A stretch of DNA of 64,000 nt, taken from positions 42,098,001 to 42,162,000 of the forward strand of contig OX597818.1 in assembly GCA_951406725.2 (NCBI GenBank). The letters run 5' to 3'. Position numbers and translations under genes: made by a program. The stretch's first letter is position 1. Each line of letters begins with the position of its first letter. The stretch is from Octopus vulgaris. Its lineage: Eukaryota. This document shows positions 826 through 54,233 of this stretch, in pieces. Below the pieces are notes generated by a model. It ran no database searches. It saw only the letters and a program-made list of their open reading frames with translations, and was not told the DNA's origin.

Positions 826-2078
826 GAAAGTTCTGAGCGTTTTTTAATATGCAAAAAGTGATAAAAATAATTGACCTTTCAATAGATTTTATTCAATGAA
901 ATAATTTCTATTATTATTAATGACCATTGCCCATTTTTCAGGCAATTTAAATATTCCATCAGCATAAAATTTGAGTGGTTTTGAAGAAAAAAGTTACCAA
1001 GATGCATTTTGACTCCATCTAAACGAGTTTTGTAGAGACAAAAACAAATGGTAGTTGGGTGGCATGACATCAGGAGAATATGGTGGATGAGGTAAGAGAT
1101 CTCAGCCAGGTTCATGTAACTTTGTTCAGGTAGCCAAAGACACATGTGATCGGGCATTGTCTTGTTAGAACACTACCACTTTCTTGTTGGGAATCTCCAG
1201 CCTCAATTCTTTGAATTTTTGCTTCAAATTGGCCAGCTGACAACAGTACACATCAGAATTAAGGGTCTGGTGTTGTGGGAAAAGCTCATAATAAATAATG
1301 CCTTTATGATCCCACCAAACACAAAGCATAGCTTTTTTGATATGGATATTTGTCTTTGGTTGCTGTTTTGGGGGATCTTTATGTAAATACCAGGATATTT
1401 TTTGCACTACATTTTCGTACACAATCCATTTTTCACCTCTGGTCACAATTTGTTTCAAAATAGGCGTGCTTTCATTCTTATTCAAAAACATATCACAAAC
1501 AGAATACTAGTCCAAGCAATTCTTTTCTGAGTGTTTGTGAGGGACCCATACATTATAGCAAGAAATGTACCCTAGTTTCAGTAGGTGTTCATGAGTTATA
1601 CTTTTAGAAACTTCCAATTCCTCTGCAAGTTCTCTAGTCATGATATTTGAGTTTTCTTTGATTTTTTCCTTCAAAACATCTTCATCCAATTTGAAGGTCT
1701 ACCACTGCAACTGTCATCTTCCAAGCTAAACTCTCCAGCTTTAAATTATGCAAACCACCTTCGAACAGTTGATTCCCCTACAGCATCATCACCATAAACT
1801 TCACGAATGATTTTGCAAGTCTTTACAACATTTTCTCCTTCTTTACAAAAGAAAAGCATTACAATGCAAATATGAAATTTTTGGTTGTCCATTTCAAATG
1901 TCAATAAAGGGTAACTGGAATGAAAGATAAATCTATCTTTAGTCAGGAACAAAAAAGAAATGCACTACCGCTTCAGGCAACACCAAAATTTCAACTGTGT
2001 AATGTTTCAGGTGTGTTCAATGAAGGGTTAAAAGATTTAGCTTAAAAAATGCTCAGAACTTTGTGGACAGCCTAATAA
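826..2078 (-). mobile_element. Decayed mariner (DD34D) transposon
   Basis: Frameshifted fragments: HTH region (REVYGDDAVGESTVRRWF), WVPH, IVTxxEKWIVY, MLCVWWD, QDNARSH, LPHPPYSPD. TIR aaagttctgagc(g/a)tttttt at both ends, left one truncated. Confidence 0.92.
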
Positions 2079-4205: not shown

Positions 4206-4381
4206 CAGGGTTCGGTTTACATATAACTCCAGCAGCTTCATCCTTTTTACAGTCATGCTCAGTATCATATGAACAATATTGCAAAGCACTTTCATCTCCT
4301 TTACAGTCGGTATTATCCATGAGAAAGTCTTCTGATTCTGCCAAACCATATCTTGAATTTCCTGTAGCTACTTCAGCACCC
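4206..4381 (-). CDS. SRCR domain C-terminal half exon (176 nt) GAEVATGNSRYGLAESEDFLMDNTDCKGDESALQYCSYDTEHDCKKDEAAGVICKPNP
   Basis: MDNxxCxGxExxLxxC...C..DxAGVIC motif. Acceptor atttttag|G, donor G|gtaagt. Six Cys in total indicates group A SRCR. The gene continues beyond position 1. Confidence 0.95.
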
Positions 4382-4411: not shown

Positions 4412-6362
<1,951 letters not shown>

Positions 6363-6619
6363 CTCATTTTTACATTATTTCTTTTTGAGAGTTCGTCTAA
6401 GATCAATAATACCTGTTGGAAACTCTTTATTTCTTTATTTATGCACTCTTTCCACCTTGAGTGTTTGTGTGCTTTTTTGAGAGCCCTTTTCTGTAACTTG
6501 ATGCCAATTTTCTTCATAGCAGTAGTATCTGTTGAATATAAAAGATGGCCTTAATGCGATTAAATCTGTCTCAGTTTCAAGGAGAAGCTGCTTCAGAGTA
6601 TAATCATGTATTTTGATCA

Positions 6620-8260
6620 TACAGTGATTTGGTTTGGTGTTCTGAAACTTTGATCAAACAAGACGTGAAAATTTTAGCATTTTCAAGTAGATTTGGGAAT
6701 TTTCCAGTGGGAAAAATGCATTTCTTGTAAAAATCAACGATTGATTATGAAGAAAATTTTGATCTTAAGAAATCATCACACTGAAAATCTATAAGTTCAA
6801 GTTGGAACTTTTCAGGGACATTCTCAATATCTACATCAAAAGGAGTGTCAAATACCTTAGGTAGGTTCTCACATTTTCAAAAATCATCAAAATGTGTCAA
6901 AAAATCGGCCTTCAATTTCTGAATGCTGTGGACAAATACATCAGAACCAATGTTTATGTGCTAGTTGAGATACATAAAATGAGAGTAATTCCCGTTTTTG
7001 GTTGTGACTCTCAAATTTTTGGTTCCCATTCAAATGTGGTAACATATCCAAACATTTGAAATAAGACCTTATTCCATCCTTGCAGTTCAAGATTCAGTGA
7101 GTTCATATGCATTGTTATGTCAGCTTGGAATGCTAGCTTAACAACCCATTGTGGATTCCTTAAGAAAGAGGCATCATAGTCTTTGCTCTCCAAAAATAAA
7201 GCAACCTCCTCTCTCAGTGAATAAAAATGTGCAAGCATTTTATCTTAGCCAACGAATATTGCAGAAGTAAGTTAGGTCACTATACTCAGCCTCTGTCTGA
7301 TTAAGGAACTCCTGAACTGGCAGTGATTGAATCTTCTTGATAGGATGAAATTCACTAATTGACAACTTGAATTGGAGTGTCTTCACACACAAAGCATCTT
7401 GATGTATAATGCAATGTAGCTTGAATAGTGTCTGTTCTTGAAGTAAAGCTACCACACCTTTTTTCTCACCAATCATTGCTGGTGTTCCATTGGTGGTCAC
7501 CCCAACCAATTTTGATAAATCTAAGTTAGATTGAATCACCCTGTTCATGAGGCTGTCATATAAATCTGATCAGGTAGTTGTATTTTTCAAAGAAATAACT
7601 TGTGCAAATTCTTCCACAATGTTAAAGGTTGGAGTAACAAAAAAAGCAAAAACCACGAGTTGGCAGGTGTCTGTCATATCAGAAATGTCATCTTCATCAT
7701 CATCATCATCGTTTAACGTCTGTTTTTCATGCTTGCATGGGTTGGACGGTTTGACCAGGATCTAGGAAGCCAGATGGCTGCACCAGGCTCCAGTCTGATC
7801 TGGCAGTGTTTCTACAGCTGGATGCCCTTCCTAACACCAACCACTCTGTGAGTGTAGTGGGTGCTTTTTACGTGTCACCAGCACAGGTGCCAGGTGAGGC
7901 TGGCAACGGCCACAATTGGATTGGTGCTTTTTACGTGCCACCGGCATGGAAGCCAGTCTAGGCGGTGCTGGCATCGGCCACGTTTGGATGGTGCTTTTTA
8001 CATGCCACTGGCATGGAAGCCAGTCAAGGTGGCACTGAGCAATGGAAAAACATTCAAGACTTTGTAACACACCTACCAAACTTCTCCTGACACCGACTGC
8101 CATTTTTTCAATTCTTCACGTGACTGTTCTTGAGGACAAACTGATTTCAGAAAATAATTTTTTTTGTCTTTTGTACTATCAGGGCCTGTGTTGGAGTGCT
8201 ACTGTCTGACATCTCAGTACGTATTGAGCGTGAATCTTTATGGGCGTTTTCACATGGTTA
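6620..8260 (-). mobile_element. Decayed hAT transposase (GTF2IRD2/SPIN/Buster-like), interrupted by an RTE-tailed element
   Basis: Motifs TTNGTPAMIG, LHCIIHQDALC, RWL and KLAFxxDITxHMNxLNLELQG in ORFs 7240-7548 and 7011-7238. Confidence 0.85.
7694..8045 (-). mobile_element. RTE-tailed non-autonomous retroelement with about 3 pseudoknot modules
   Basis: Shared core ggtgttaggaagggcatccagctgtagaaac, 3' end ccaacccatgc.agcatg.aaa...gacgttaaac(gat)n. Confidence 0.8.
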
Positions 8261-11152: not shown

Positions 11153-11287
11153 CTGGAAAATCCAAGTTGTTTGCAGGCTACATCAGCATCCTTCATATCC
11201 CAGTTGTCATCACAGACATAACCCCAGCTGTTGTTACGGTAAATACTTATCAGACCAGCATTGTAGAAAGAGGTGTTACCAACAAGC
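11153..11287 (-). CDS. SRCR domain N-terminal half exon (135 nt) LVGNTSFYNAGLISIYRNNSWGYVCDDNWDMKDADVACKQLGFS-R
   Basis: WGxVCDDxW...A.VAC+QLG motif typical of SRCR. Acceptor ttttgcag|G, donor AG|gtgaga, phase 2-2. Confidence 0.95.
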
Positions 11288-13361: not shown

Positions 13362-13447
13362 CGGATGTTGCTGTGGCCAAGAGGTTCATAAAAGGCAGCT
13401 CTTGCAAAGGTTACATTATTTTCTTCAGTGACAGGTTCAGGTGTAGG
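13362..13447 (-). CDS. Linker exon (86 nt) PTPEPVTEENNVTFARAAFYEPLGHSNI-R
   Basis: Acceptor ttcattttgttttag|CCT, donor CG|gtaaga. The phase-2 end joins G of the next exon to give the canonical SRCR start IRLVG. Confidence 0.88.
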
Positions 13448-14075: not shown

Positions 14076-14472
14076 GTATGGTGATGTGAACAAGAAAATA
14101 GAACTCAAAATATAAGTATATGTATATTTTATTAATATTTAGCAGAAGTAGCAAAGTAACTCAAGGTCTGAGAGTTTCATAGTTTCATGCATTGACACTT
14201 ATCAAACTATATATATCTATATACACATGCACATACATACACACCAAGCAGTATGACCTGATACTACTGAATACATTCTGTGTCTGCCATTTTATGTATT
14301 TAGTATTCCATTTGCTTATTTCATTATTGTATTAGTAAAGAGATTTACTTCCAATTAAAAAAAGGTTGAATAGAAGTTTATATTTCATAAACTCTAGACA
14401 GGATTATTGACTATGCACCAGTCTTAAAAGTATGTAAAACATTTATGTAATGGGTTTAATATTTATTCTTAC

Positions 14473-14505
14473 CGTTGTGTTTGGAGTGGGACCCCTTTTA
14501 TTACA
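14473..14505 (-). CDS. Microexon (33 nt) CNKRGPTPNTT of the SRCR gene
   Basis: Acceptor ttcttatcattccag|TGT, donor ACG|gtaaga. Its Pro/Thr end continues into the next exon (PTPEPVT). Confidence 0.8.
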
Positions 14506-14868
14506 CTGGAATGATAAGAAAAGAAATTAGCAATGAATTCCGGTCTCCAAAATTCAGAAATTCTTTAATATATTAAATATATGTGTGAACATTTGGCTGC
14601 ATGCTTGTAAATTTATTGGTGTTATTTTGCTTATTTGTTTGCTTGTGTGTGTGTGCTTTTGTTTTAATTACATTTACCAAACTACCAACCATACAACAAG
14701 CCCAAAAAACCAATCCTTTTCATTGTGTTACTAAAACTGTATTACTCATAACCAAGACATTTAATTTTCACTGTCTTAGTCAATCAAAATCTACTTTGAT
14801 AATCAGGATACCTTAGGTAACAGTTTTGGTTTCAAAATATGAGACAGGTGTATACTAAATGAATGTTT

Positions 14869-15208
14869 CATCATCATCATCATCGATTAACGTCTGTTTT
14901 CTGTGCTAGCATGGGTCAGACGGTTCGACTGGGGTCTGGGAAGCCAGGAGGCTGCACCAGGCTCCAGTCTGATTTGGCAGAGTTTCTACAGCCGGATGCT
15001 CTTTCTAACGCCAACCACTCCATGAGTGTAGTGGGTGCTTTTTACGTGCCACCGGCACAGGTGCCAGGGGAGCCTGGCAGCGGCCATGATCGGTTGGTGC
15101 TTTTTACGTGTCACCAGCACAGAAGCCAGTCAAGGCGGCGCTGGCATCGGTCACGTTCAGATGGTGCTTTTTACGTGCCACCGGCACAGAAGCCAGGCAA
15201 GGCAGCGC
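14869..15208 (-). mobile_element. RTE-tailed modular element (3 modules)
   Basis: Same core and (CAT)n end as the 7694 and 29263 copies. Confidence 0.8.
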
Positions 15209-16892
15209 TTTTCATAATTAATTAGTGATATAAGTTTGGCGGTAAACTCTTGGTGCTCCAAGTCTGTGACTTGGGCTTAGTTTCTGGAAACAGCTGTTTC
15301 ACTCAGCTGATCCCTTTGGGGAAAGCATGACCATTACAACATCCAGTTACTTCTCTCAGTAGAACCAATCCCTTGTTGAATGTCTCTGATGTATAGGTTT
15401 TATTGTGTGTATCACGCCTATCATTTATTAACCCTTTCATTCCCATATTTCTCTTGAAATAAAGTGCCTTTATTACAATTAATTTTGAAAATAATGAAAA
15501 AATTAGTAAAATAATTTTGATGGTGTTAAGAAAAAATTAGTAAAATAATTAAGCTGGTGTAAAGAACAAAAATTAACATGATATCTTGACAGAATGTTTT
15601 TAGATCACTTTAAAACAGTAAATTTGTATCTTGTGGTTTCAAGCAGGTTGGTATCAAAAGATTTAAGTCCTCAATGAGTTTGTGTGTATTTTTTTATCAT
15701 AAATTAGTTATCAGAGAAGTACCAGAACTTATTGCTTTGATATGAGTAAACCTTCTTAGACTAAGCAGTAATGATGTGATTGATGAACTTCTGTAGGAAA
15801 AATGGGAAAAGGAATTTCAGTAGGTTGAATTTCCAAAGAAGAAAGGATTGAAAAAGTGCTTAGTGTGAGGTCGGGTTGTGGGGAGATACTAAAGGGATTA
15901 CTATAAGAACAGAAGTGTCATCAGATGGTCTGGGATGAAGATTTTGATGAAAATTTGTAGACAAAGGAAGAAGTGGCTTTTAGTAAACTAAAAGATACAG
16001 AGTGGAAAAAAATGCATACTATGAAATAGATGCAGTGTGCTGGTGAATAAGACTTTGCCACTTATTCAAAGGCCTTTGTTTGGATATGATCTCAGATGGC
16101 TGTTTGCTTAGCAGAAGTTACATGAACAATATTATAATAATAATTTTGACTCAAGTTTGTCAGTGGGGTCAACTGCTCAGGGCTGAAATTTTTTCAGGTT
16201 CTAAAACAAATGTCTAATGTTTATGACATGAGGTTATCTTAAGTGAATAAAGGCATGTGGTCTGCTGGTCAGAGTGTTTGGCCCATGATCATAAGGTCAT
16301 TGGTTGAATTCCTTACTAAGCAGCACATTGGGCCCTTAAGTAAGGTACTTCACTTTATGTTGCTTCAATCAACTCAGCTATAATGGAGGGTGTCTCTGTC
16401 TGCAATTGTATTGAACTACTCTCTGACAGCACCAGTGGTTAAAAATGTAATGTTTATTCATCCACATTGTTCCAAATTAATCAGACATTGTCTCATAGCC
16501 TCAACCCCAGGACTTATTCTTTGTAAGCTTGGTACTTATTTTGTCAGTCTCTTTTGCTAAACCACTGGTTTGCAAGGGCATAGACACACCAGCATCGATT
16601 GTCAAGTGATGGCAGGGGGGGGGGGGAACAAACGCAGACACATATACACACACAAATATGTACATGTATACATACAATGGGCTTCTTCCAGTTTCCGTGT
16701 ACCAGATCCACTCACTGAGGATTTTAGTTGTGTACTGTACATGTGCAAAGAGAGTCTACTGTAGTACTGTTTCCTTGTTATCATGGTGCTGCTAAATGTA
16801 ATTGAGTTGTTTGTTCTCATTGATGGATGTTTTTGAGATTTCTGTTCATAGAAGCCCTGAAAGTCTGGCATGGGGGGTTTAGATTCATCATT

Positions 16893-16924
<32 letters not shown>

Positions 16925-17545
16925 TTAACGTCCGTTTTCCATGCTAGCATGGGTTGGACGGTTTGACCAGGGTCTGTGAAGCCAGGAGGCTGCACCAGGC
17001 TCCAGTCTGATCTGGCCGTGTTTCTACAGCTGGATGCCCTTCCTAACGCCAACCACTCCGAGAGTGTAGTCACAGGTGCCAGGGGAGGCTGTCAACAACC
17101 ACGATCGGTTGGTGCTTTTTACATGTCACTGGCACGGGGCAAGAGGTTAAGGAGTGAAGGCTGGTACATAGTATGTGGTTAGAAGTAACGGTTCAATAAG
17201 GTACAGAAGTAATAGTATGGAAGACATAATCAAACATTGGAGTATGCTAGAGTTAACAAAGTATGGCTCTGAGGGAAGATGTCAGCCATGGAGATGTCAA
17301 ACAAGAAAATCCTGGTCCAAGAGATGAGAGATAGAATGAATCCAAATGGAAGTGTTCATCTCAGGTATGTTCACAGAATTCATTGTTGTCAAGAGTAACG
17401 AAATATTGCTTTTGGCAATATTGCTGTGTTTGTGCATGTTTATTTGTGTTTGTGTGAGCATGTATGTTACTTGCGTGCTGGTATGTTTCTCATAAGTATT
17501 TGCATGTGTAAGCTGTTTATATGTTTGCTATGGGCATATGTTTAA

Positions 17546-17772
17546 CCCTTTCGTTACTGTATTTATTTTGAGATGTTCTGTGTTTCTTTCAATTATTTTA
17601 AATATAACAAAGAATTTAGAAAAATAACTTAGTTATCATTAAGCTGGTGTTAGGAACATAAATTGTGACTAAGTTTTGGTGGTATATTTTAATGCAAAAC
17701 TTATGAAAACAAGACATTTGTACTACAGAGCCAGAGCCAGAGCCAGTTTTGGCCGGGTTGGTAACGAAAGGG
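17546..17772. mobile_element. piggyBac-type MITE
   Basis: TTAA flanks and TIR ccctttcgttac/gtaacgaaaggg. Related copies at 15432-15662 and a partial one at 18513-18638. Confidence 0.85.
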
Positions 17773-17929
17773 TTAAGTGTAGATCAATGTATATTTTTCT
17801 TTATAAGTATATTTCCCTATTTGAATGTGTTACTGTGGTTATGTATGGTTAAACAGTTATGTATTAGTGTGCATGTGAACAATATGTATAAATGTGAGTG
17901 TTTGTGTCACATTACAAAACTATACTTAC

Positions 17930-17962
17930 TTGTGCTCTTTCTCTTCCTCTCAAACCTCCACA
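17930..17962 (-). CDS. Microexon (33 nt) CGGLRGRERAQ of the SRCR gene
   Basis: Acceptor tgtctctttgtag|TGT, donor CAA|gtaagt, phase 0-0. Repeats the 23589-23621 peptide. Confidence 0.8.
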
Positions 17963-19111
17963 CTACAAAGAGACATTTAAAAGTCATAATTACAAAAATG
18001 AACAAATTGGGGCACGAATTTCTATTGTCTAAATTTTGTTGTTAATGGTAAATAAAAATAAACTATTTGTGTATTTTGCTGGCTTTTACATGCAAGTAAT
18101 GAGTAGTAATAAATACAAGATTTAACAAAATCAACAAAAGATTTAATAGCATCATTACTGAATATAAATATCTATACATGCATATTACACACACACACAC
18201 ATTGTGCCACCGATATATATATTGGTGGCATATAAAAAGCACCATTTGAGTGTGGCCTTTGCCAGTACCGCCTGACTGACCCTCATGCCAGTGGCATGTA
18301 AAAGCACCCACTACACTCTTGGAGTGGTTGGCATTAAGAACATTAAGGTGTTAGAATTTATCTTCTGACTGAAGATTCTCTTTAAGTTATTTTGATCTGC
18401 TAGAGAGTGGGGAGGGATATTCGGTTGAATGGAGACAAAAGAGATTTTCTATTTATAGATATAGGAAAGGGTGAAATATATTTCAAAAGTTATTCCTGAA
18501 GAAGTTAAAGTGGTAGTTATCATTAAGCTAGTGTTAGGATTAATTGTGACTAAGTTTTGTTGGTATATTTTAATGCAAAACTTATGAAAACAAGACATTT
18601 GTACTACAGAGCCAGAGCCGGTTTTGGCCAGGTTGTTAAGGCAATCAGATTTTGTATCAAGAAAACTAGGCCAATACTAAATGGTCACAATAACCATCTA
18701 TATACTACATAGTTATAGAAAATACAGAAGTTCTTTTACACTTATACAAAATCTTCAGTCAGAAGATAAATTCTAACACCTTAATGTTCTTAACATTCAA
18801 ATCAATATCTCTGTCTGTATATCTACCCTCTTTATAATGTTATCAATTAACATGGAAATAAGTATATGTATTGATGGAAAACCTCTATAAATGGCTGATG
18901 ATTGCTCAACATTTTAAAACTGTTGTAATACTTACAATGTTTAATAAAATGATGTAGCGTGAAACGATCATACCAAATTACCGAAGATATTCTAGTTGCT
19001 TATTTTGATTATAATCACCCCATGGATTTATAAAATTCTGGTGCATCTGACTTAAGTACCATATTCATTTGAATCTAAATTTTGCTGAACTTATATATAT
19101 ATATATATATA

Positions 19112-20655
19112 TATACGTTTATATATTTGTTGTGCAAGATTTTTTATGTGAAGTCGTGTGTGGAAACAGATATTGTTATATTTCAGAATGGTCATTTTGC
19201 CAGTTTAGCCAATAAAAACACATGCACTATATATTTGGTGTTACTTTGCTTCAGTGTTATTTATTTTTTACATTAATCTTAATCTTATTTCAGCCAGAGT
19301 TCTTTCGTCACACTCCTGTGACCGCATCAGTGGTCCTTTGTTTTCATCTTTCTTATTTGTGTCTCTCCTTACTAACCGTCAGCCATTTTGTATTTCTATT
19401 GTATGTCTTCATTTGCGCATGCTTATATCTCTATGTGCGTCTATGTTTATTTAGTGTGCGGGGGTGGGGGGGATGCCTGTAATATTTGTATCTTCTGTTT
19501 ATATACGTTCATGTAATTTGTTTTTGTTGTTGTTTTTGTTTATTCTTATTTTGTTCATGTGTTTACATCCACTTGTTATTATCATAACATATGCTTGTAT
19601 GTATGTATGTATAACAACAATACTAATAATAATAATAATAAATCGGAAAAAAAAAATAATAATATAGTTATTTATTTCTATTTGTTTATTTATCTGTGTA
19701 TTTATTATGTTTTCGGGATCCTCTACCGTCATATGTTGTGGTGTGTGCTAGTGTTCCATTCTAGTTTTCCATTCAGGCTACGTTTATTTTCTATTATGTG
19801 TGTAGCTTCTGTAATTTGTCTGATTGTTGCATCTGTTCTATGTGTAGACAATATTTTAATTTCTATGTTGTTGATTCATCCCCCGTGTTCCCGTTCGGTG
19901 TGTTGGTACAGAATCGATGAGCTTTTACCTTCCTTGAGTTGTCTCCAATGTCAATTTACCCACTCTCCTATGCTTCTTGCCGTTTCCTCTACGTATGTCG
20001 TTGTCTTGTTACTGCATCGTCTCTCTATACATCTTATACTATAGACTACATTTCTGGCTTTACAGTTTGTTTGTGGGCTAAATTTACATACAGTACAGTA
20101 CTTATCCGTACAGGGGGTTCTACTAAAAGGATAGGTTCTACCAATTATAGATTTGATAGGGTTGCCTGGCTTTTCAACAACCTTAATCCTTAGCTTAAGT
20201 TTGTCTAGGGTCCTTCTAAAGCGGTACACCAGTTCACCTCCAGGGGTGGTGTCAACGAACATGACACTCTGGTATTTATGGCTATCATACCAAGAGTTGG
20301 CCTTCCCTATTTTCTTTTTTGTCCTTTCTATAGTGTTCCATGACTTGTTCCTATAGAGTGGGCAAATCCCATTCCTATCATTACATAATATATTATCAAA
20401 TTTCTTCATGGCTCCTTTGTATACTCTGATCCTTTCTTTATGGCTGTAACCTGAGAACTGCATGCGGTGAATGAAATATTGTATGTGTCTCTTTAACTCT
20501 GTAGGCTCGCACATGCGTGACACATTCCTCATTATTCTGACGAAATAAGATTAAGATTAATGTAAAAAATAAATAACACTGAAGCAAAGTAACACCAAAT
20601 ATATAGTGCGTGTGTTTTTATTGGCTAAACTGGCAAAATGATCATTCCGAAATAT

Positions 20656-20662
<7 letters not shown>
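19112..20662 (-). mobile_element. Penelope-like element, heavily 5'-truncated, with an inverted pLTR
   Basis: ORF 19951-20532 has CxxxxCxxC...C..RNVVYSIRC...YVEETARSIGE (GIY-YIG-like). The 3' pLTR at 19112-19400 has an inverted copy at 20541-20662. Confidence 0.85.
19293..19336 (-). ncRNA. Hammerhead ribozyme motif (A9C-mutated copy)
   Basis: ggacca-CUGAUGC-g-gucac-aggagu-gugac-GAAA-gaa-CUC-uggc. Intact paralogue at 60413-60457. Confidence 0.65.
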
Positions 20663-20728
<66 letters not shown>

Positions 20729-21054
20729 TGTATGTATGTATGTATGTATGTATGTATGTATGCATGCATGCATGTATGTATGTATGTATGTATGCATGTG
20801 TGTATGTGTTTTTATGTTTGTGTTTGTCTCCCAACAGTTTGACAGCTAGTGTTGATTTGTTTACATATCCATAACTTATCTGTTCAGCAAAAGAGACCAA
20901 TAAAATAAGTATCAAACTTTAAAACAAAAACATAAATGAATAAATAGTTAGTAGTGTCAATTTATTTGACGAAATACTTCAAGGTAGTGCCCCAGCATGG
21001 CTGCACACCAATGTCAAAACAAGTAAAAAATAAAAATATAAAAAGATTTCAAAA

Positions 21055-21335
21055 TCTCTCTATATATAAAGGGCAAAATGTCTGTGTGCATGTCCTTTAT
21101 ACAAATCCACAATTTTTCAGTTAGAGGGCTCGCACTTTCTATGGTCATTTAAAACCGTTCAAGGGTGGTCGTGCACATCTTTACATTTCCCCAGTCACCC
21201 CACAAGGCCATTAAAATATCAATAGAAGTGACTCTTTTGTGAATTTTCTATCCAAAACCCAATCAAAATGCCCGAAACTTGATACGCCAATTGAATGCCA
21301 GCTAGCTGTATGTGATTGCCGGGTCATAGTGCTAG
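21055..21335 (+). mobile_element. Non-autonomous Helitron
   Basis: 5' TCTCTCTATATATAAA and 3' gccggg...tgCTAG, inserted between A and T with no TSD. Confidence 0.75.
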
Positions 21336-21487
21336 TCTTCCATATAATATTTGGTACCTTAAAATACAGTAAAGCAAAATTTACTTAAATTCACTAAAGA
21401 ATACCACATTAATATTACAAGTTGTTTCATGTTAAAAGAATAAACTTATTGTATGTGTGCTCAGGTGCACTACATATTTCTCCTTAC

Positions 21488-21523
21488 TCGTTTGTTATTG
21501 GGGCTGCGATTCTCTTTCATGCA
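21488..21523 (-). CDS. Microexon (36 nt) CMKENRSPNNKR of the SRCR gene
   Basis: Acceptor ttttgtctttgcag|TGC, donor CGA|gtaagg. Only frame 0 is open. Confidence 0.75.
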
Positions 21524-22714
21524 CTGCAAAGACAAAATATAAAGGAACAATGAGTTTTGGTAGTCAGAATAAATATATACATTAAATAATGGTTTCAAAT
21601 TTTGGCACAAGGCCAGTAATTTCAGGGATGGGGATTAGTCAATTAATCAACCCCTGTGATCAACTTGTACTCATTTTATTAATCCTGAAAGGATGGAAGG
21701 CAAAATCGACCTTGGCAGAATTTGAACTCAGAACGTAAAGATAGAAAAAATGCAAACAATTCTGCCAGTTAACCAACTTATATACATTAAATATTAACAG
21801 TGTGCATGCTTGTGTGCATGCATGGGTTGTATATTTGTATTCATATATGCAAGAATACATTTTGTTTATGCATGTGCGTATGTTGTTTGTTATATATGTG
21901 TGTAGTCCTGTCTCAGACTTCAAACTGCATCCAGTAGTGGGACTGACTCTGGTTTGGGAGTTCCAGTGTTTTGGTGAATGTGGAATCACCTCTTAGTCAC
22001 TACTGTTACCAGGTCAACTTTAACCCGGAGACGAAGCATCTGTCAGGGTTACAGTTATTGGTTAATTAACATATTAGGGCCCTAGCTACTAATGCATGCC
22101 CGTGCTGACTGGATCTGGCAGACACTGTAGAAAAAATCTCATGGTCAAATGAAGAGGTAAGTGGCTGCAGCAATGCATTGTGGGGCACAGAGAACCAGAT
22201 GAGACAAAAGACATCTTGGTTATCCATTGCATCCAACTCCATCCCCAACTGAATTGATCTGATCTTGTTACTGGATTAAAGATGGTCATGGAGGAGAGAA
22301 TGGAGCTGACAGTATACAACAATTTAAGGCGGCGAGCTGGCAGAATCGTTAGCACACCGGGTGAAATGCATAGCCATATTTCGTCTGCTGTTACATTCTG
22401 AGTTCAAATTCTGCTGAGGTCGATTTTGCTTTTCATTCTTTCGGAGTCGATAAATTAAGTACCAGTTACGCTCTGGGGTCAATGTAATCGACTTAATCCG
22501 TCTGTCTGTCCTTGTTTCTCCTCTCTGTGTTTAGCCCCTTGTGGGTAGTAAAGAAATAAGTATGCAACTCTTCTTCACTTTAAACCAAGTCACTGCACAA
22601 GTCATCAGTCATCCCTGAAGATGACTAGATGGTCCACGTCACACTGAAAGATGAACATGACGCTATATATATGTGTGTGGTTACATGTATGTGTCCACTT
22701 GTATTTGTACATAG

Positions 22715-23144
22715 AAATCATCCGAACGTGGCCGTAGCCAGTACCGCATAGACTGGCCTCCGTGCTTTGGGGACGTAACAAACACCATCCGATCGTGGCC
22801 GTCCGCCAGCCTCATCTGGCACCTGTGTCGGTGGCACATAAAAACACCATCCGAGCGTGGCCGTCTGCCAGCCTCGTCTGGCACCTGTGTCGGTGGCACA
22901 TAAAAACACCATCCGAGCGTGGCCGTTCGCCAGCCTCGTCTGGCACCTGTGTCGGTGGCACATAAAATCACCCACTACACTCTCGGAGTGGTTGGCGTTA
23001 GGAAGGGCATCCAGCTGTAGAAACACTGCCAGATCTGACTGGCCTGGTGCAGCCTTCGGGCTCCCCAGACCCCAGTTGAACCGTCCAACCCATGCTAGCA
23101 TGGAAAGCGGACGCTAAATGATGATGATGATGATGATGATGATG
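22715..23144 (+). mobile_element. RTE-tailed modular element (4 modules)
   Basis: Near-identical 60-nt units ggcacctgtgtcggtggcacataaaaacaccatccgagcgtggccgt, then the core and (GAT)n tail. Confidence 0.85.
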
Positions 23145-23226
23145 AAATGCTTGTGTGTAATTTGCTTTTTAGTCTGGAGGTGTGCGTACTTGCTTGTACT
23201 TGTTTGTTTGTATGTTGTATGTGTGT

Positions 23227-23475
23227 GGAGGTGCATGGCTTAGTGGTTAGGGTGTCAGCATCATGATCGTAAGACTGTGGTTTCGATTCCTGGACCAGGC
23301 GATGCGTTGTGTTCTTGAGTAAAACATTTCATTTCATGTTCCTCCAGTCCACTCAGCTGGCAAAAATGAGTAACACTGCAATGGACTGACGTCCCGTCCA
23401 GCTGGGGAACACATACACCATTGAAACCAGGAAACCGGGCCCATGAGCCTGGCTAGGCTTTAAAAGGGCACATTT
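23227..23475 (+). mobile_element. tRNA-type SINE family B, full length
   Basis: A-box tggcttagtgg, B-box ggtttcgattcc. Closely matches 58114-58362. Confidence 0.85.
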
Positions 23476-23588
23476 ATTTTATTTATTATGTTGTATGTGC
23501 ATCATAAGATTAAGTGTGAATATCTGCATGTGTGTATGTGTGTGGATGAGTGCCTGCAACAGATAAAGGAATATAACTCAACACTTAC

Positions 23589-23621
23589 TTTTGCTTTTTC
23601 CCTTCCTTTCAAATGTGAGCA
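23589..23621 (-). CDS. Microexon (33 nt) CSHLKGREKAK of the SRCR gene
   Basis: Poly-T acceptor tttttag|TGC, donor AAA|gtaagt, phase 0-0. Paralogous to the exon at 17930-17962. Confidence 0.8.
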
Positions 23622-24179
23622 CTAAAAAATAAAAAATAGATATGCTTAATTACTAATATTCAAATATTTATTCAATATATTACATGTCACCTACTTATCT
23701 GTATACCATTTTATTAGCTATTTTCTCCAAGCACAGACACAAGGCACATGTATATATGTTTGTGTATATAAATTGACAATATATGTACAAATATATATGT
23801 CCTGCCGGCATGGGAAGCAGATGTTAAACGATGATGATGATGATGATGATGATGGTGATATATATTACCTTCGAAATGCGGAGTAGATGAAACAAGGACA
23901 ACTGAAGAAGGGGAATATTCCTTGTGTTGTATGTCTTGTTTTTTTTTCGTTGTTTGAAAAAAAGTTTGTATCTATGTTTTTGCTTTTATGTTTTCATTTC
24001 TCATTGTGTTCCATGTCACGTTTTTTTGATGTCCTGTACCCATATATGCATGTAATGAATCAACCTGTCTATTTACCTTTCTCTGCAGTTATTGATGTTG
24101 CTGTATCTGGGAGGGTCATTATATCAGTAATAAGCTCATGCACTGGAGTGTGTTTGGTTTTGGTATAAAAAGTTACAAT

Positions 24180-24447: not shown

Positions 24448-25352
24448 GTGTGTGTGTGTATAAATATATATATATGAGACTTTTGGAAATATGCTGTGCT
24501 TGAGAAGACCCGGCAAGCCAAATGAGACCATAACCTCGTGGCCTATGCCAGGGGCGTAACCAGTCCACTTATGCGTACCTTTCCTTCATTGGACACTAAA
24601 CTCTGCTAGCGGGGTACAAAGAGCACCATACGAGTGTGATCATTGACAGAGCGGCTAACCGGCTTCTGTGCCAGTGCCACATAAAAGACACCATTCGAGT
24701 GTGATCATTACCAGTGTCACCTTACTGGCACTTGTGCCTCGTGCTAGTAGGGTGCTAAGAGCACCATCCGAGCGTGATCGTTGCCAGTGCGGTTAACTGG
24801 CTTCTGTGCCAGTGGCATGTAAAAGGCACCATTCGAGCGTGATCATTACCAGCGTCACCTTACTGGCACATGTGCTGGTGGCATGTGTAAAAAGATTCGT
24901 TACCAACATTGCTTTACTGGCACCTGTGCCGGTGGCACATGTAAAAAGATTTGTGCGAGGTTGTTGCCAGTACCGCCTGACTGGCCCCTGTGCCAGTGAC
25001 ACGTAAAAGCACCCACTACACTCTCGGAGTGGTTGGTATTAGGAAGGGCATCCAGCTATAGAAACTCTGCTAGATCAAGATTGGAGTCTGGTGCAGCCAT
25101 CTGGTTCGCCAGCCCTCATTCAAATCGTCCAACCCATGCTAGCATGGAAAACAGATGTTAAATGATGATGATGATGATACATATATACGACGGGCTTCTT
25201 TCAGTTTCTGTCTACCAGATCCACTCACAAGGCTTTGGTCGGCCCAAGGCTAGAGTAGAAAACACTTGCCCAAGGTGTCACGCTGTGGGACTGAATCCAG
25301 AACCATGTGGTTGCTAAGCAAGCTATTTACCACACAGCCACTCCTGCGCCTA
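24180..25352 (-). mobile_element. tRNA-type SINE family C with a nested RTE-tailed element in its central microsatellite
   Basis: Head (ggagtggctgtgtggtaa...) at 25185-25352 and tail (...gcaccacctttagtcgagc...) at 24180-24370 flank the insert. Intact family copy at 46121-46525. Confidence 0.75.
24476..25178 (+). mobile_element. Long RTE-tailed modular element with 5' head
   Basis: Head agacttttggaaatatgctgtgcttgagaagacc..., shared with 25877, then about 7 diverged modules, core and (GAT)n tail. Confidence 0.8.
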
Positions 25353-29262: not shown

Positions 29263-29915
29263 CAGCCTCGTCTGGCACCCGTGCCGGTGATACGTAAAAG
29301 CACATTTGCTCATGGCCGTTTGCCAGCTCTGCCTGGCCCCGTGTCGGTGGCACATAAAAGCACCATCCATTCGTGTTCGTTGCCAGCCTCGCCTGGCCCC
29401 GTGCCGGTGACACGTAAAAGCACCGTCCGTTCGTGGCCGTTTGCCAGCTCTGTCTGGCCCCGTGTCGGTGGCACGTAAAAGCACCATCCGTTCGTGGCCG
29501 TTTGCCAGCACTGTCTGGCCCCGTGTCGGTGGCACGTAAAAGCACCATCCGTTTGTGTCCGTTGCCAGCCTCGGCTGGCCCCCGTGCCGGTGACACGTAA
29601 AAGCGCCGTCCGCTCGTGGCCGTTTGCCAGCTTTGTTTGGCAACCGTGTCAGTGGCACATAAAAGCACCATCCGTTCGCGTCCATTGCCAGCCTCAGCTG
29701 GCCCCCGTGCCGGTGACACGTAAAAGCACCGTCCGTTCATGGCCGTTTGCCAGCTCTGTCTGGCCCCGTGTCGGTGGCACGTAAAAGCACCATCCGTTCG
29801 TGTCCGTTGCCAGCATCGCCTGGCCCCGTGCCGGTGACACGTAAAAGCACCATCCGTTCGTGGCCGTTCGCCAGCTCTGTCTGGCACCTGTGCAGGTGGC
29901 ACGTAAAAAACACCC
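29263..29915 (+). repeat. Tandem array of 11 units of about 61 nt at the 5' side of an RTE-tailed element (element ends near 30083)
   Basis: Unit gccag-N6-ctggc-ccc-cgtgy-cggtg-rcacg-taaaag-cacc-rtccgttcgtg.ccgt. Two subtypes in the order ABABBABABAB. Confidence 0.92.
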
Positions 29916-39365: not shown

Positions 39366-39440
39366 CTGTTTCTTGGCTTCTATTTCATCCAGCCACAATG
39401 CAAAAACAAGAATTACAAGAATAAAAATTGGTAACTTCAT
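39366..39440 (-). CDS. SRCR-domain secreted protein, first coding exon (signal peptide MKLPIFILVILVFALWLDEIEA-KKQ)
   Basis: ATG at 39440 (an in-frame upstream ATG at 39458 gives MFTGNR). 25 codons with a basic N-terminus, hydrophobic core and IEA cleavage-like end. Perfect donor CAG|gtaagt, phase 0, in frame with the downstream microexons. Confidence 0.8.
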
Positions 39441-40084
39441 CCTGTTACCAGTAAACATCTAACTGACTTTAAAGTAAAAAAATATTTCTGAATTTGTGAT
39501 GAGAGTGAAGGGGAGGGTGATTGTGTTTTGTGATGGTTGTTAACAAAGGAGAGGCCAGAATACATTTAAGCTTCAGTCTCCCTGATGACAATTGTCAAGT
39601 GAGCCACTTCTCCCCTCCAACTTACTTCTACCCTGTCACTGTCACCATCACCAACAAACTGTTAACTTTTTTTTCTTTCTTATCTGGTGACTTCATTTTC
39701 TTCTTCTGAATGTTTTGTTGGTTCCTTTTTCTTTCTTTCTTTTTTTTTTTTTTTTTTTTTGTTAAATCTAAAAATGAGGACAATATTGCTACTCTCATCT
39801 GTAAAGATTTCAGCATCAGCAATTTGATACAAACATTGTTTTTAGGTCATACACAAAAGACTATTTACTACATGGGGCATGTATGAGTTTAAGTATGTTT
39901 ATGTCTGTGTATGTATACATGGGTGCATAACTCAAGAGGACAGTTTTTTATGACGGGGTTTTATGAACTTATAGATGTGAATATACATACCCTGAAATAA
40001 GAAACATGTTTATCTATAAAGCAAATGAAAGATAGAATTTCAAAATAGTTTAGCAATGTATATGAAGGTGTGTGTGAAGTGAGG

Positions 40085-42584: not shown

Positions 42585-43780
42585 TTAGGTTGGCAACTAA
42601 GTTCCCACCGTTTTTTTGAAAGGTTTAATAAAAAAAATAACAACTAGTTAATCAATAATGTATTCACCTTTCTTGTTTACAACTTCTTCCCAACGTTCAA
42701 CAAGGTTTTCAATACCTTATTGGTAGAAATCACCCGATTTCGACTCGAAAATTTGATCCAACCAAGCTCTCAATTCTGCATCAGTATTGAATGAAACTCC
42801 ACGCATAGCATTTGAAAGAGATCGAAAGATGTGGAAGTCCATTGGTGTCAAAGCAGGAGAGTACGGCGGGTGTGGCAGCACTTCCCAGCCATGCATTTGA
42901 ATGGCTTCCTTGGTCATATTGGCATGCTGCAGAAGAACTCCAAGCTGCATATTAGGTCTTTTCTCTTGAATAGCAGTGCTGAGTCGTTCCACCTGTTGAA
43001 CATATAGAGTTCCGCGTTGACTGTTTGGTTCTGTTCAAGCAATTCATAATGGATAATCCCTTCCCAGCCCCACCATACTCACAACATCGTTTTACGCGGA
43101 TGAAGATCTTATTTCATGTGTGATGTCACTTATTTACCAGGGCTAAGCCATTCCTTACTCTGCTTCTTATTGATGTACAGACACCAGTAAAGATTCAGTA
43201 AAGAAATCGTTGCTTGTGTCTATGAGTTCAGTGGTGACAAGCAAGCAAACCAGTGGAGATTATGGCTCATTGATTTTTGTTGTTGTTACTTAAAGCATGC
43301 AGAACCCATGCTCCATACTTCTGAACCTTTCCCATCAAGTGAAGATGTTTCTCTATAGCAGTGTGGGAGCATTCTATTTTCTCTGCTAATTCCTTTGTCA
43401 TTTGACGAGAATTTTTGTGCAAAAGTTGGTTTAATCACTCTACATCAAACTCAACTGGACAGCCAGAGTGAGGTGTGTTTTGGGGTCAAAATTTCCATTT
43501 TTGAACTTGGCATACCAATCACAAGCGGTTCTTTCAGCTGTGGCACCCTCTCCATACACAGCACGAATGTCGCGAAAGGCTTTTCTGGGCTTGGAACCTT
43601 GATTAAAAGCAGTGTCAAAAATGCTCATTCTTCTTAACTTGACATTCCATTTTAATGATCTGAAAATAAGCAAAAATTAACTAAAATTAACTAAAAAAAG
43701 GAAAAAAGATTCCAAAATTTAAAAACACATTAAATTCCAAAATTAAAAAAAAAACAGTGGGAACTTAGTTGCCAACCCAA
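42585..43780 (-). mobile_element. Near full-length decayed mariner transposon
   Basis: TIRs tt(a/g)ggttggcaactaagttcccac.gttttttt with TA flanks. Fragments AVYGEGATAERTACDWYAKFKNGNFD and WEVLPHPPYSPALTPMDFHIFRSL. Confidence 0.93.
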
Positions 43781-46525: not shown

Positions 46526-46829
46526 AAGAAGAAAAGAAAATGGAGAATGGATAGTTAATAATTATTTATCATTAACAGCAAACTGGTCATCTTCACTTAC
46601 AGCCGTTTCAGCGGATACTCAATAAACGTTAAACTTATATTTATGTGACATGAGCATAATATCCTCAGAAGAAAAAAAAAGATGTACCTTCGGATGTTAT
46701 GTGTGTGTCTATGAATTCATTTTAGCAGACTAAAATAAACTCATGAGTTTGCTCAAATGAATTTATAAGCAAACATATAACATCCAAAGGTACATCTTTT
46801 TTTTTCCTTTGATGATGATATTATACAAC

Positions 46830-48712
46830 TATAAACAACAAAAAACAATCAAAAACCTCACCACCCTCATACTTCAACACAGTCAGGGACTCACAGAAAA
46901 AGAAAGGGATTATATCACCAATTTCAAATGCAAGCCTAGCCTTTTCTATGGCCTTCCTAAAGTCCATAAAAACAAATACATCACCGAAACCTGCAAACTC
47001 TCCTCTGACATCCACATCAACATCAAAGCACCGGAGGACCTAAAACTAAGGCCCATCATAGCTGGCACCTCCTGTGAAACATACCGCTTGAGTAATTTCC
47101 TAGACATCCTTTTGAAACCTTTCCTTATTCACATCAAAAGTTTCATTAGGGATGATCTGGACATGCTCAAACACCTCCCGAAAACAGCTAACGAGGAGGC
47201 ACTCCTGGTGTCCTTTGACGTCATCAACCTATACACCAACATCCCACATGAATATGGTATTGAGGCAATTGATTTCTGGCTAGAGAAACACCCAGAGGCA
47301 TTCCCTGACCGCATTCACAAGACCTTCATTACGGAATCACTCAAGTACATTCTGACAAACAATTATTTCCTTTTCGATAACAGACACTACCGTAAAAAAT
47401 GTGGTATTGCGATGGGTACCAAGGCTGCACCAGTCCTTGCAAACCTCATAATGGGCTTTTTCGAACTATCACTCTATGAGATATCACGCCAGAAATTTGG
47501 ACACATTTTCCACATCTACCTAATGGAAAACTGGAAAAGGTATTTGGATGATTGTTTCATCATATGGAAAGAATCTTATGAAAAGCTTCTGGAATTCAAA
47601 ACCATACTGAACAACATACATCCCAACATCCAATTCACTATGGAATTCAGCAAACATCATCTCCCTTTCCTTGATCTCCTAATTATAAAAACACCTAACA
47701 ACCAAATCATAACAGACATCTACCACAAACCTACAGACACACAACAATACCTCCTCTTTAGCTCATGCCAGCCAAAACACACCAAGATAAATATCCCTTT
47801 CAACTTAGCTAAAAGGGTATGCACCATTGTTTCGGATCCCAAAACTCGAGAAATACGCCTTCAAGACCTAAAAAAAACACACACACACAATTACAACGCC
47901 AATATCCCTCCACCCTTATAGAGTATGGAATAAAACGTGCCAAAGAACTAGATAACAATACACTGAAAACCACCCAACCCAACAACACACACAACCCCAA
48001 AATACTTCCATACATTTCCACCCACAACCCCCATAATATCGAAGCATATACCACAATCATACAAAACCTCACTCTACTGTCCACAGACCCAAAAATGAAT
48101 AACATTATCAATACACATAAAATCCTCAAATGTAAAAGGCAACATAAATCTTTGAAAAAACTCTAAACAAATACCAAACTTCACACACCACATCTAACCC
48201 CATCAGTTAAAAAATGTGCACGCCCAAACTGTGGCACCCGCCCCTTCCTATTTGAAGACTCTGAATTTATTTTCAAACAAGGAACAAAGTTTAAAATCAA
48301 GACCAACTTCTGTTCCTCCAAGAACCTTATCTACGTTCTCACATGCGCCGGTGGCCAACATAATTATGTTGGACAAACGAGCCTCCCTTTACGTAAAAGA
48401 GTAGCGGTCCATAAAGAACAAATAAATCTCCCAGAATACCGTCAAATTCCACTAAGTAGCCACATAAACCCGTGCGCTAAAGATAAAAATCCCAAATTTT
48501 ACATATTCCCCTTCTACCAATGTAAAGACGGTATCACTACACAAGAAAGAATTAACAAGGAGAATCTTTTTATTGAAAAATTCAAAACGCATCTTAATAT
48601 GCAAACTCCACGTTGATCATACTTCTTTTTTCTACCTCATTCTTCAAGGATGGACTAATACAAATATATAAGGATATCATGCAGTTATCACTTCAAGCTA
48701 AAAATTATATTC

Positions 48713-53010: not shown

Positions 53011-53584
53011 CTGACTTCCAGTATGCGGAGTTCTTGACTGGTAGCACTTGCATGTGCAAGTTGTTTGCAAGACATCATAATAATTCAAAATTGAACGTCG
53101 ATTATTCAATGTCAGCTATAGCATAATACTTGAAATATTTAGTGAGATTAAATTATCTTTTTCGTTAAGAATCACCCAACCTTAACGAATGCTTGATAGT
53201 GTGACGATATTTTAAGATAATTTCAAAAGAGTATTTATATAATAATCAGCTGGACTGTTTTAACATAATTAGGTTCAAACATGTGGGTTCAAATATCGCT
53301 GCTATCAGCTTCATCCTTTCGGGGTCGATCAATAAAGCTCCTGTATTGGTGTACATTTTTTTCTCTCACTCTCTTTCCCCCCTCTTTCTCAAGGAGAAAC
53401 TGGTTGGGCTCAGATATAGAGAGGATGAGCTCCGGCAGCTATAAAATGTCCAAGACACGTCGTGTATCATGACGGTACCTTTACGACTTCATCAAGAGTT
53501 GAGAACCAAAATCGAAATATGGCAACTGCATTTTCAGAATGAAGGTCGCTTCTTACTCACGTTTTCCATACAGGCACCAACAAT

Positions 53585-54233
53585 GGAAGCCTTCCGACAA
53601 ATTCTTGCTTATTAGAAAGCGAAACGACCCACGTTACACGACGAAAGCAGTGAAGTTTGGGAGTAAGAGTCTGGTGTTTTGGGTATACATAGAAAGTGAT
53701 GTTTCAAGAAAGTTGGTTAAAACTGACGGTAATTTGAATAGTGCCAAATATAGCCAGTTGCTGGGGGACAATTTGATACCAGACTTGGAGGAAGGTGAGA
53801 TTTTCCAGCACGACGGAGCTCCATGCAACGGATCGCGTGCAACACAACAGAGCCTGGCTGATGAAAGTGTTATCGTATTGAAAGATTGGCCAGCTCAGAG
53901 CTCTGACTTAAATGTCATCGAGAAAATGTAGACAGAACTAGAGAAGAATTCGTCAGAAGAATCCACACAATCTTGAAGAGTTGCGAGAGCTCAGTCACAG
54001 AGAATGGCAACTCATACTTGTGAATATGGTGAAGGATTTGTACGTATCTCTTCCCAAGCACATTGAAACAATTATTCAAGCTAAGGGAAGCTACACGAAA
54101 TATTAACAATGCACAGTAACTTCTTGAAAATAATATTATGTAATAAATTTTCATTATAGACATTTTTGTTTTAAAACAATGCATCTTAACTGGATTATGT
54201 GTGGGGCCGAAAACTTTTGCACGGCCATTTTTG
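53585..54233 (+). mobile_element. Tc1-like (DD34E) transposon, 3' half
   Basis: VKFGSKSLVFW, FQHDGAPC, DWPAQSSDLNVIE. TIR-like end ccgaaaacttttgcacggcc. Confidence 0.88.

Follow-up and report, generated by a model that had tools for sequence, protein, structure and literature searches.

An apparently unnamed coleoid cysteine repeat, encoded by four short exons, in an SVH-1/Tequila-type serine protease gene of Octopus vulgaris

Introduction

Do four exons of 33 to 36 nucleotides (nt), scattered through some 9 kb of intron, build a real protein module, and if so, on what kind of protein and with what role? The question is raised by a 64,000-nt stretch of Octopus vulgaris DNA (NCBI GenBank assembly GCA_951406725.2, contig OX597818.1, positions 42,098,001 to 42,162,000 of the forward strand), referred to here as the window, with positions counted from its first letter. 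An earlier note, made from the letters alone, had described these exons (A to D below) as a duplicated, Cys-bounded cationic module ahead of an SRCR domain. We report that the exons are spliced to each other, and that the repeat they encode is a real, and apparently unnamed, coleoid unit seated on a known protease family.

Four short exons and their splicing

In order of transcription, the four exons are:

23589..23621, minus strand: exon A, 33 nt, opening Cys and L-x-G loop of unit 1
21488..21523, minus strand: exon B, 36 nt, the Cys that closes unit 1, followed by linker
17930..17962, minus strand: exon C, 33 nt, opening Cys and loop of unit 2
14473..14505, minus strand: exon D, 33 nt, the Cys that closes unit 2, followed by the first part of a Pro/Thr linker

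All four are in phase 0, follow a pyrimidine-rich acceptor ending in tag or cag, open with a TGC or TGT codon and run directly into a gtaag donor, so that the coordinates, initial cysteines, phase and translations first proposed for them are all confirmed in the DNA. A scan of the window for YAG, a TGY-initiated open stretch of 27–42 nt (multiples of three) and GTRAG returned four matches on the minus strand, which are exons A to D, and none on the plus strand, while a looser splice-score scan gave nine minus-strand candidates of 60 nt or less, exons A to D included. The joined frame from 39440 to 4206 (202 amino acids, aa) is identical to residues 7–208 of the public Octopus vulgaris model CAI9722756.1 (P0002), which may derive from the same assembly and is therefore not independent for sequence. 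No other unit-encoding exon was seen in the window, where a six-frame motif scan found exons A and C only and tblastn gave no convincing extra candidate.

The claim that the exons are spliced to each other was checked in Logan contigs over positions 14200–23800, using 4 of the 24 listed runs (four studies, two species labels). None of these runs is recorded as RNA and that status is a guess; the contigs were taken as transcript-derived because spliced joints are present in them. The three internal junctions (23589>21523, 21488>17962 and 17930>14505) have GT-AG ends and occur in all four runs, with one contig for each joint and a depth that is equal across the three joints within each run (160.9, 209.8, 55.3 and 101.8). 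The outer junctions, 39366>23621 and 14473>13447, lie beyond the stretch checked with contigs and are carried by the public model only, which contains the whole chain. A chance splice-signal artefact was considered as an explanation for exons A to D and is rejected by the pattern scans, the contig junctions and the identity with the public model. A joint skipping any of the four was absent among the 15 joints listed out of 364, a negative that is limited by the loss of rare isoforms from contigs. If one exon were skipped, the cysteines would be odd in number, and an even count would be kept only by skipping a pair; exons A to D are likely included together and not skipped singly.

A Cys-bounded repeat unit in coleoid proteins

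The repeat unit is C-x2-L-x-G-x5-C, 12 residues bounded by cysteines, and is present in two copies in the octopus protein, in five copies in the Sepia-cluster proteins P0050 and P0201–P0203, and in P0046, a protein that groups with Sepia in the tree, in five copies and one variant pair. Twelve units were drawn from three proteins by requiring C-x10-C, Leu, Phe or Ile at position 4 and Gly at position 6. Outside these selection criteria, Arg or Lys occupies positions 9 and 14 in 12/12 units, and Glu or Asp occupies position 8 in 8/12. Linker length between units ranges over 11–68 aa with the Cys spacing inside the units constant, and the cysteines between signal peptide and SRCR domain come in even counts (4, 12 and 10). 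The description of the module as cationic holds for the octopus protein (15 Lys/Arg against 3 Asp/Glu) but not for the cuttlefish side, where the units range from -1 to +6 and the linkers are acidic. As a separate observation, the linkers of P0046 and P0050 are rich in Gly, His and Glu, with metal or chitin binding as a possibility.

Relatives were gathered by a lectin-domain search (best 150 of 366 matches) together with an earlier search. A profile of the unit, run against 217 stored proteins, gave nine matches at E 1.3e-11 or better, all from the cephalopod clade, of which three had built the profile and three more share identical N-termini; the next best match stood at E 0.29. By motif scan the unit occurs in 9/52 family-like rows. 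It was absent from every named member from oyster, scallop, freshwater mussel, snail, brachiopod, nemertean or amphipod, these being gene models that may miss short exons. When used as a query against 1360 candidates (754–2400 aa in length), the repeat region of P0046 found no protein but its own.

The view that the module belongs to no named domain is upheld: searches to E 5–10 gave no Pfam or NCBIfam match above the curated cut-off over the module, and PDB matches begin at profile position 73 or later, which is the SRCR domain, with none over the module. A likeness to the bacterial PsiF repeat was considered and finds no support in Pfam. No description of the repeat, and no paper on SVH-1 in cephalopods, was found in the non-subscription literature covered, and the exons themselves are already in the public gene model; neurotrypsin-like products mentioned in the available parts of octopus papers cannot be tied to the present gene. 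What is defined here is thus a small cysteine repeat that no searched library names.

Origin of the repeat

Exons A and C are identical at 24/33 nt, a score reached by none of 100,000 shuffles, and exons B and D at 18/33 nt with a gap of one codon (p ~0.009), with any similarity between the introns around A/C and B/D having decayed. Since the opening Cys and the loop lie on A or C and the closing Cys on B or D, the repeating element is the exon pair. The exon-pair duplication put forward for this locus fits these similarities, but it is not private to the octopus, as the cuttlefish side has five copies. The repeat would have grown by duplication of a loop exon together with a closing-Cys exon, an event that would keep both the reading frame and the even Cys count.

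Two Sepia pharaonis gene models, P0198 and P0199, are without exactly one Cys-initiated segment of 15 aa that is present in four transcript-derived proteins (4/4 full-length Logan-derived proteins of the Sepia cluster), which may reflect an annotation miss or a real skip. The segment runs from a closing Cys to just before the next opening Cys, and this suggests that the intron positions in the cuttlefish are the same as in the octopus. With introns placed between the two cysteines of each unit in Octopus and, on this one indirect sign, in Sepia, the module offers a clean case of domain growth by short exon-pair duplication since the octopod–decapod split.

The host protein and its inactive paralogs

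The remaining exons of the host gene that fall in the window are:

39366..39440, minus strand: coding part of the signal-peptide exon, with a phase-0 donor; the public model starts six codons earlier, at 39458
13362..13447, minus strand: 86-nt exon, Pro/Thr/acidic linker and a conserved YEPLG motif ahead of the SRCR domain
11153..11287, minus strand: first exon of SRCR domain 1, 135 nt
4206..4381, minus strand: second exon of SRCR domain 1, 176 nt; the gene runs on past the window start

The N-terminal exon (39440-39366) is hydrophobic as judged by eye, so that by its sequence the product would be secreted. This exon seems to reach about 330 nt further upstream as 5' untranslated region, to an acceptor-like site near 39770, and positions 39366-39740 are fully covered by several of the runs guessed to be RNA; no non-coding first exon was found beyond that site. 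Matches to Pfam on P0002, combined with a domain map, give the order signal peptide, module, Pro/Thr linker, SRCR, C-type lectin, kringle, five LDLa, PAN-like, LDLa, SRCR, LDLa, SRCR and trypsin. The PAN assignment is indirect, in that residues 701-780 of P0002 match regions of P0109 and P0135 that match PAN_1. The model P0002 ends before the catalytic Ser; in the longer model P0006 and in the O. sinensis proteins P0005–P0009, the His-Asp-Ser triad and the R/K-I activation site are intact. The protein measures 1211–1305 aa, from a coding sequence of ~3.9 kb to which exons A to D contribute 135 nt, and the public names of the octopus and Sepia proteins are svh-1-like or SVH1. By its architecture the host is a secreted modular serine protease of the SVH-1/Tequila/Sp22D type; the module does stand ahead of an SRCR domain, as first described, but its host is more than an SRCR protein. 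The family tree was made up of members from lophotrochozoans and of two proteins that bear CBM14.

In the part of the gene past the window start, the isoform models P0005 against P0009/P0002 (Octopus) and P0198 against P0199 (Sepia) differ in having two versions of the segment with the activation site and catalytic His, a pattern suggestive of mutually exclusive exons, conserved in both genera, by which the trypsin domain would exchange its N-terminal part.

Beside the module-bearing proteins stand paralogs (Octopus CAI9722758.1, O. sinensis XP_036359157.1 and Sepia CAE1270053.1) in which the signal peptide nearly abuts the conserved pre-SRCR motif and the catalytic Ser is lost (GDD in Octopus, GDI in Sepia). 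Both module and Ser are absent from P0001, P0003, P0011, P0013 and P0014 (Octopus) and from P0051 (Sepia pharaonis), all with degenerate activation sites, and wherever a module-bearing protein has its protease domain complete, the Ser is kept. In trees of SRCR plus lectin domains and of the protease domain, each dead paralog groups with the active gene of its own lineage, and the approximately unbiased (AU) test rejects a tree in which the dead paralogs form one clade (p 1.6e-41). Module and catalysis were most likely lost together twice, a conclusion that concerns two events seen in gene models and to which gene conversion may be an alternative.

The Ser-less paralogs are candidates for HGF-like pseudo-proteases. 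On a speculative and rather unlikely extension, the repeat would be a new coleoid-specific disulfide domain, encoded by exon pairs, that marks the active SVH-1 form, and octopus and cuttlefish would independently have split a dual-function ancestor into a tethered protease and a Ser-less, module-less HGF-like growth factor, replaying the division between plasminogen and HGF. The coexistence of an active enzyme that bears the module with a dead paralog that lacks it, a pairing that has arisen twice, provides a testable handle on SVH-1-type proteins in animals noted for regenerating nerves and arms.

Possible roles of the module

We tentatively favour, with a confidence that falls somewhat short of even, a constitutive tether in which each unit forms a hairpin with one disulfide and the zymogen is held to polyanionic surfaces, the ligand being putative. 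Each unit would fold as a short hairpin closed by a bond between Cys1 and Cys12, its basic residues would face polyanionic surfaces, for example mucus, microbial envelopes or the sulfated glycans of matrix, and the copy number would set the avidity. The module would thereby occupy a variable N-terminal targeting slot, one that would hold chitin-binding CBM14 in arthropod-type members and basic, Cys-free segments in other lophotrochozoans. Intra-unit disulfides are favoured by the fixed Cys spacing, the variable linkers and the even Cys counts. In the AlphaFold2 model the second half of either unit is helical (residues 10-18 and 33-40), with a predicted local distance difference test (pLDDT) score of ~65 for unit 1 only. 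As for the slot, CBM_14 lies ahead of the first SRCR domain in P0145 (amphipod) and P0135, with no match to it in P0002, P0046, P0050 or P0202, and the matching segment is net basic and Cys-free in 8/9 non-cephalopod members examined, the cut points being set by eye.

Several points weigh against the tether. The AlphaFold2 model is of low confidence (mean pLDDT 39.3, predicted template modelling score 0.22, four sequences), and even the SRCR domain is poorly modelled in it. The cuttlefish-side N-termini are net acidic overall (-6 and -12, with units of -1 to +6) and the segment of one non-cephalopod member comes to -13, and hence the basic charge is not universal; moreover, non-cephalopod members are active without the unit, which catalysis therefore does not require. 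The limit on the skip-joint negative noted above counts here too, and both the tether and the disulfide pairing are predictions from sequence and modelling. If the module adds generic basic charge only, its interest would be modest.

A less probable but still substantial alternative is that the module is a protein–protein part, either an exosite for substrate or cofactor or an intramolecular clamp that keeps the zymogen inactive. The joint absence of module and catalytic Ser from two independent paralogs speaks for it, as does the conserved L-x-G-x-E-R face, whose acidic residue at position 8 is more specific than charge would require, but two to five copies on long variable linkers would suit avidity for a repetitive surface better, and active non-cephalopod members manage with no module. 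The same tandem copies and N-terminal position could be read as inter-chain disulfides that oligomerise the protease or cross-link it into matrix, which we regard as improbable given that even Cys counts and a fixed intra-unit spacing with variable linkers favour pairs within units.

Also improbable is a regulated skipping cassette after the fashion of Schistosoma micro-exon genes or neural microexons, in which the short symmetric exons would give isoforms with altered Cys pairing or a free thiol. The common phase of the exons would allow it, and the sole hint of it is the 15-aa segment absent from P0198 and P0199; that gap may be an annotation miss, the segment is in all four transcript-derived full-length Sepia-cluster proteins, no skip joint was among those listed, the octopus joints have one contig each at equal depth in every run, and 33–36 nt exceeds the 3–27 nt of the SRRM3/4 class as given in the available part of its description (10.1101/2024.09.17.613571). 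Regulated skipping of single exons, a possibility that the earlier note drew from their symmetry, is not supported by the joints listed. We also doubt strongly that the module is cleaved off after secretion and then works by itself as a cationic antimicrobial or signalling peptide stabilised by disulfides. The basic composition of the octopus module and the exposed Pro/Thr linker next to it would suit such a peptide, and R-x-[KR]-R sites lie within or beside the P0046 and P0050 repeats, but the octopus protein has no such motif in its first 310 aa, and no defensin or antimicrobial family matched, Toxin_2 reaching E 0.17, below the cut-off, in 1/4 members.

Repeats and mobile-element remnants in the window

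Other features of the window were judged mostly by eye, and are listed here as observations:

4800-6374 (minus), 46761-48616 (plus) and 19951-20550 (minus): long frames broken by stops, with the look of a retroelement bearing reverse transcriptase and a GIY-YIG-type domain
1165-1800 (minus), 42717-43034 (minus), 53503-53931 (plus) and 6600-7570 (minus): mariner/Tc1- and hAT-like transposase fragments, in introns and upstream DNA
7899-8029, 15034-15209, 22780-22972, 24604-24951 and 29270-29908: arrays of a related 54–67-nt unit, an abundant interspersed repeat

The family of the three retroelement remnants is presumed from their general features. Repeat copies at ~15000-15200 and 22800-23000 have very high contig depth in all four runs, and no Rfam family was found in the 64-kb window.

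Comparison with known systems

Micro-exon genes (MEGs) of Schistosoma have 10–20 very short exons and are diversified by alternative splicing, according to the available part of their description (10.1101/2023.06.21.545858). The octopus gene shares with them a secreted product, short exons in multiples of three and kilobase-sized introns, but it has four short exons, 135 nt in all, in a multidomain enzyme. A micro-exon gene of the Schistosoma type is ruled out by so few short exons in a protein of this length.

Neural microexons under SRRM3/4 (eMIC) are put at 3–27 nt in the portion of the source available (10.1101/2024.09.17.613571). Exons A to D are short and frame-preserving as these are, but the neural microexons are tissue-regulated, and exons A to D are longer and act as pairs, with a structural Cys at the start of each. 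The neural class is marked by a UGC between branch point and AG; here a TGC stands at -5 before exon B and at -27 before exon D, exons A and C have none in the 50 nt ahead of them, and a TGC at -5 occurs before the 135-nt SRCR exon too.

Closer likenesses are found among modular proteases. In the available part of PMC1761132, the honey bee protease SP23 is listed as 4CBD-SR-Clect-KR-LDLA-PA-2LDLA-SP; its relatives, Sp22D of Anopheles and Tequila of Drosophila, have chitin-binding domains at the front; Sp22D binds chitin, and Tequila is described with His-rich regions. As far as that part goes, Tequila/GRAAL, Sp22D and SP23 resemble the octopus protein in the order SR-Clect-KR-LDLa-PAN-LDLa...SP and in having a variable repeated module before the first SRCR domain. 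In these three proteins, that module is the chitin-binding CBM14, whereas the octopus protein has the C-x10-C unit and no CBM14 match, and by domain content it is outside the chitin-binding Tequila/Sp22D subtype.

SVH-1 of C. elegans, which belongs to the HGF/plasminogen family, has a kringle, a PAN-like domain and a trypsin domain with an intact triad, as does the octopus protein, the two being likened by public naming and not by a tree. The difference from SVH-1 is that in cephalopods gene duplication has produced one copy that is active and bears the module and another that lacks both the module and the catalytic Ser.

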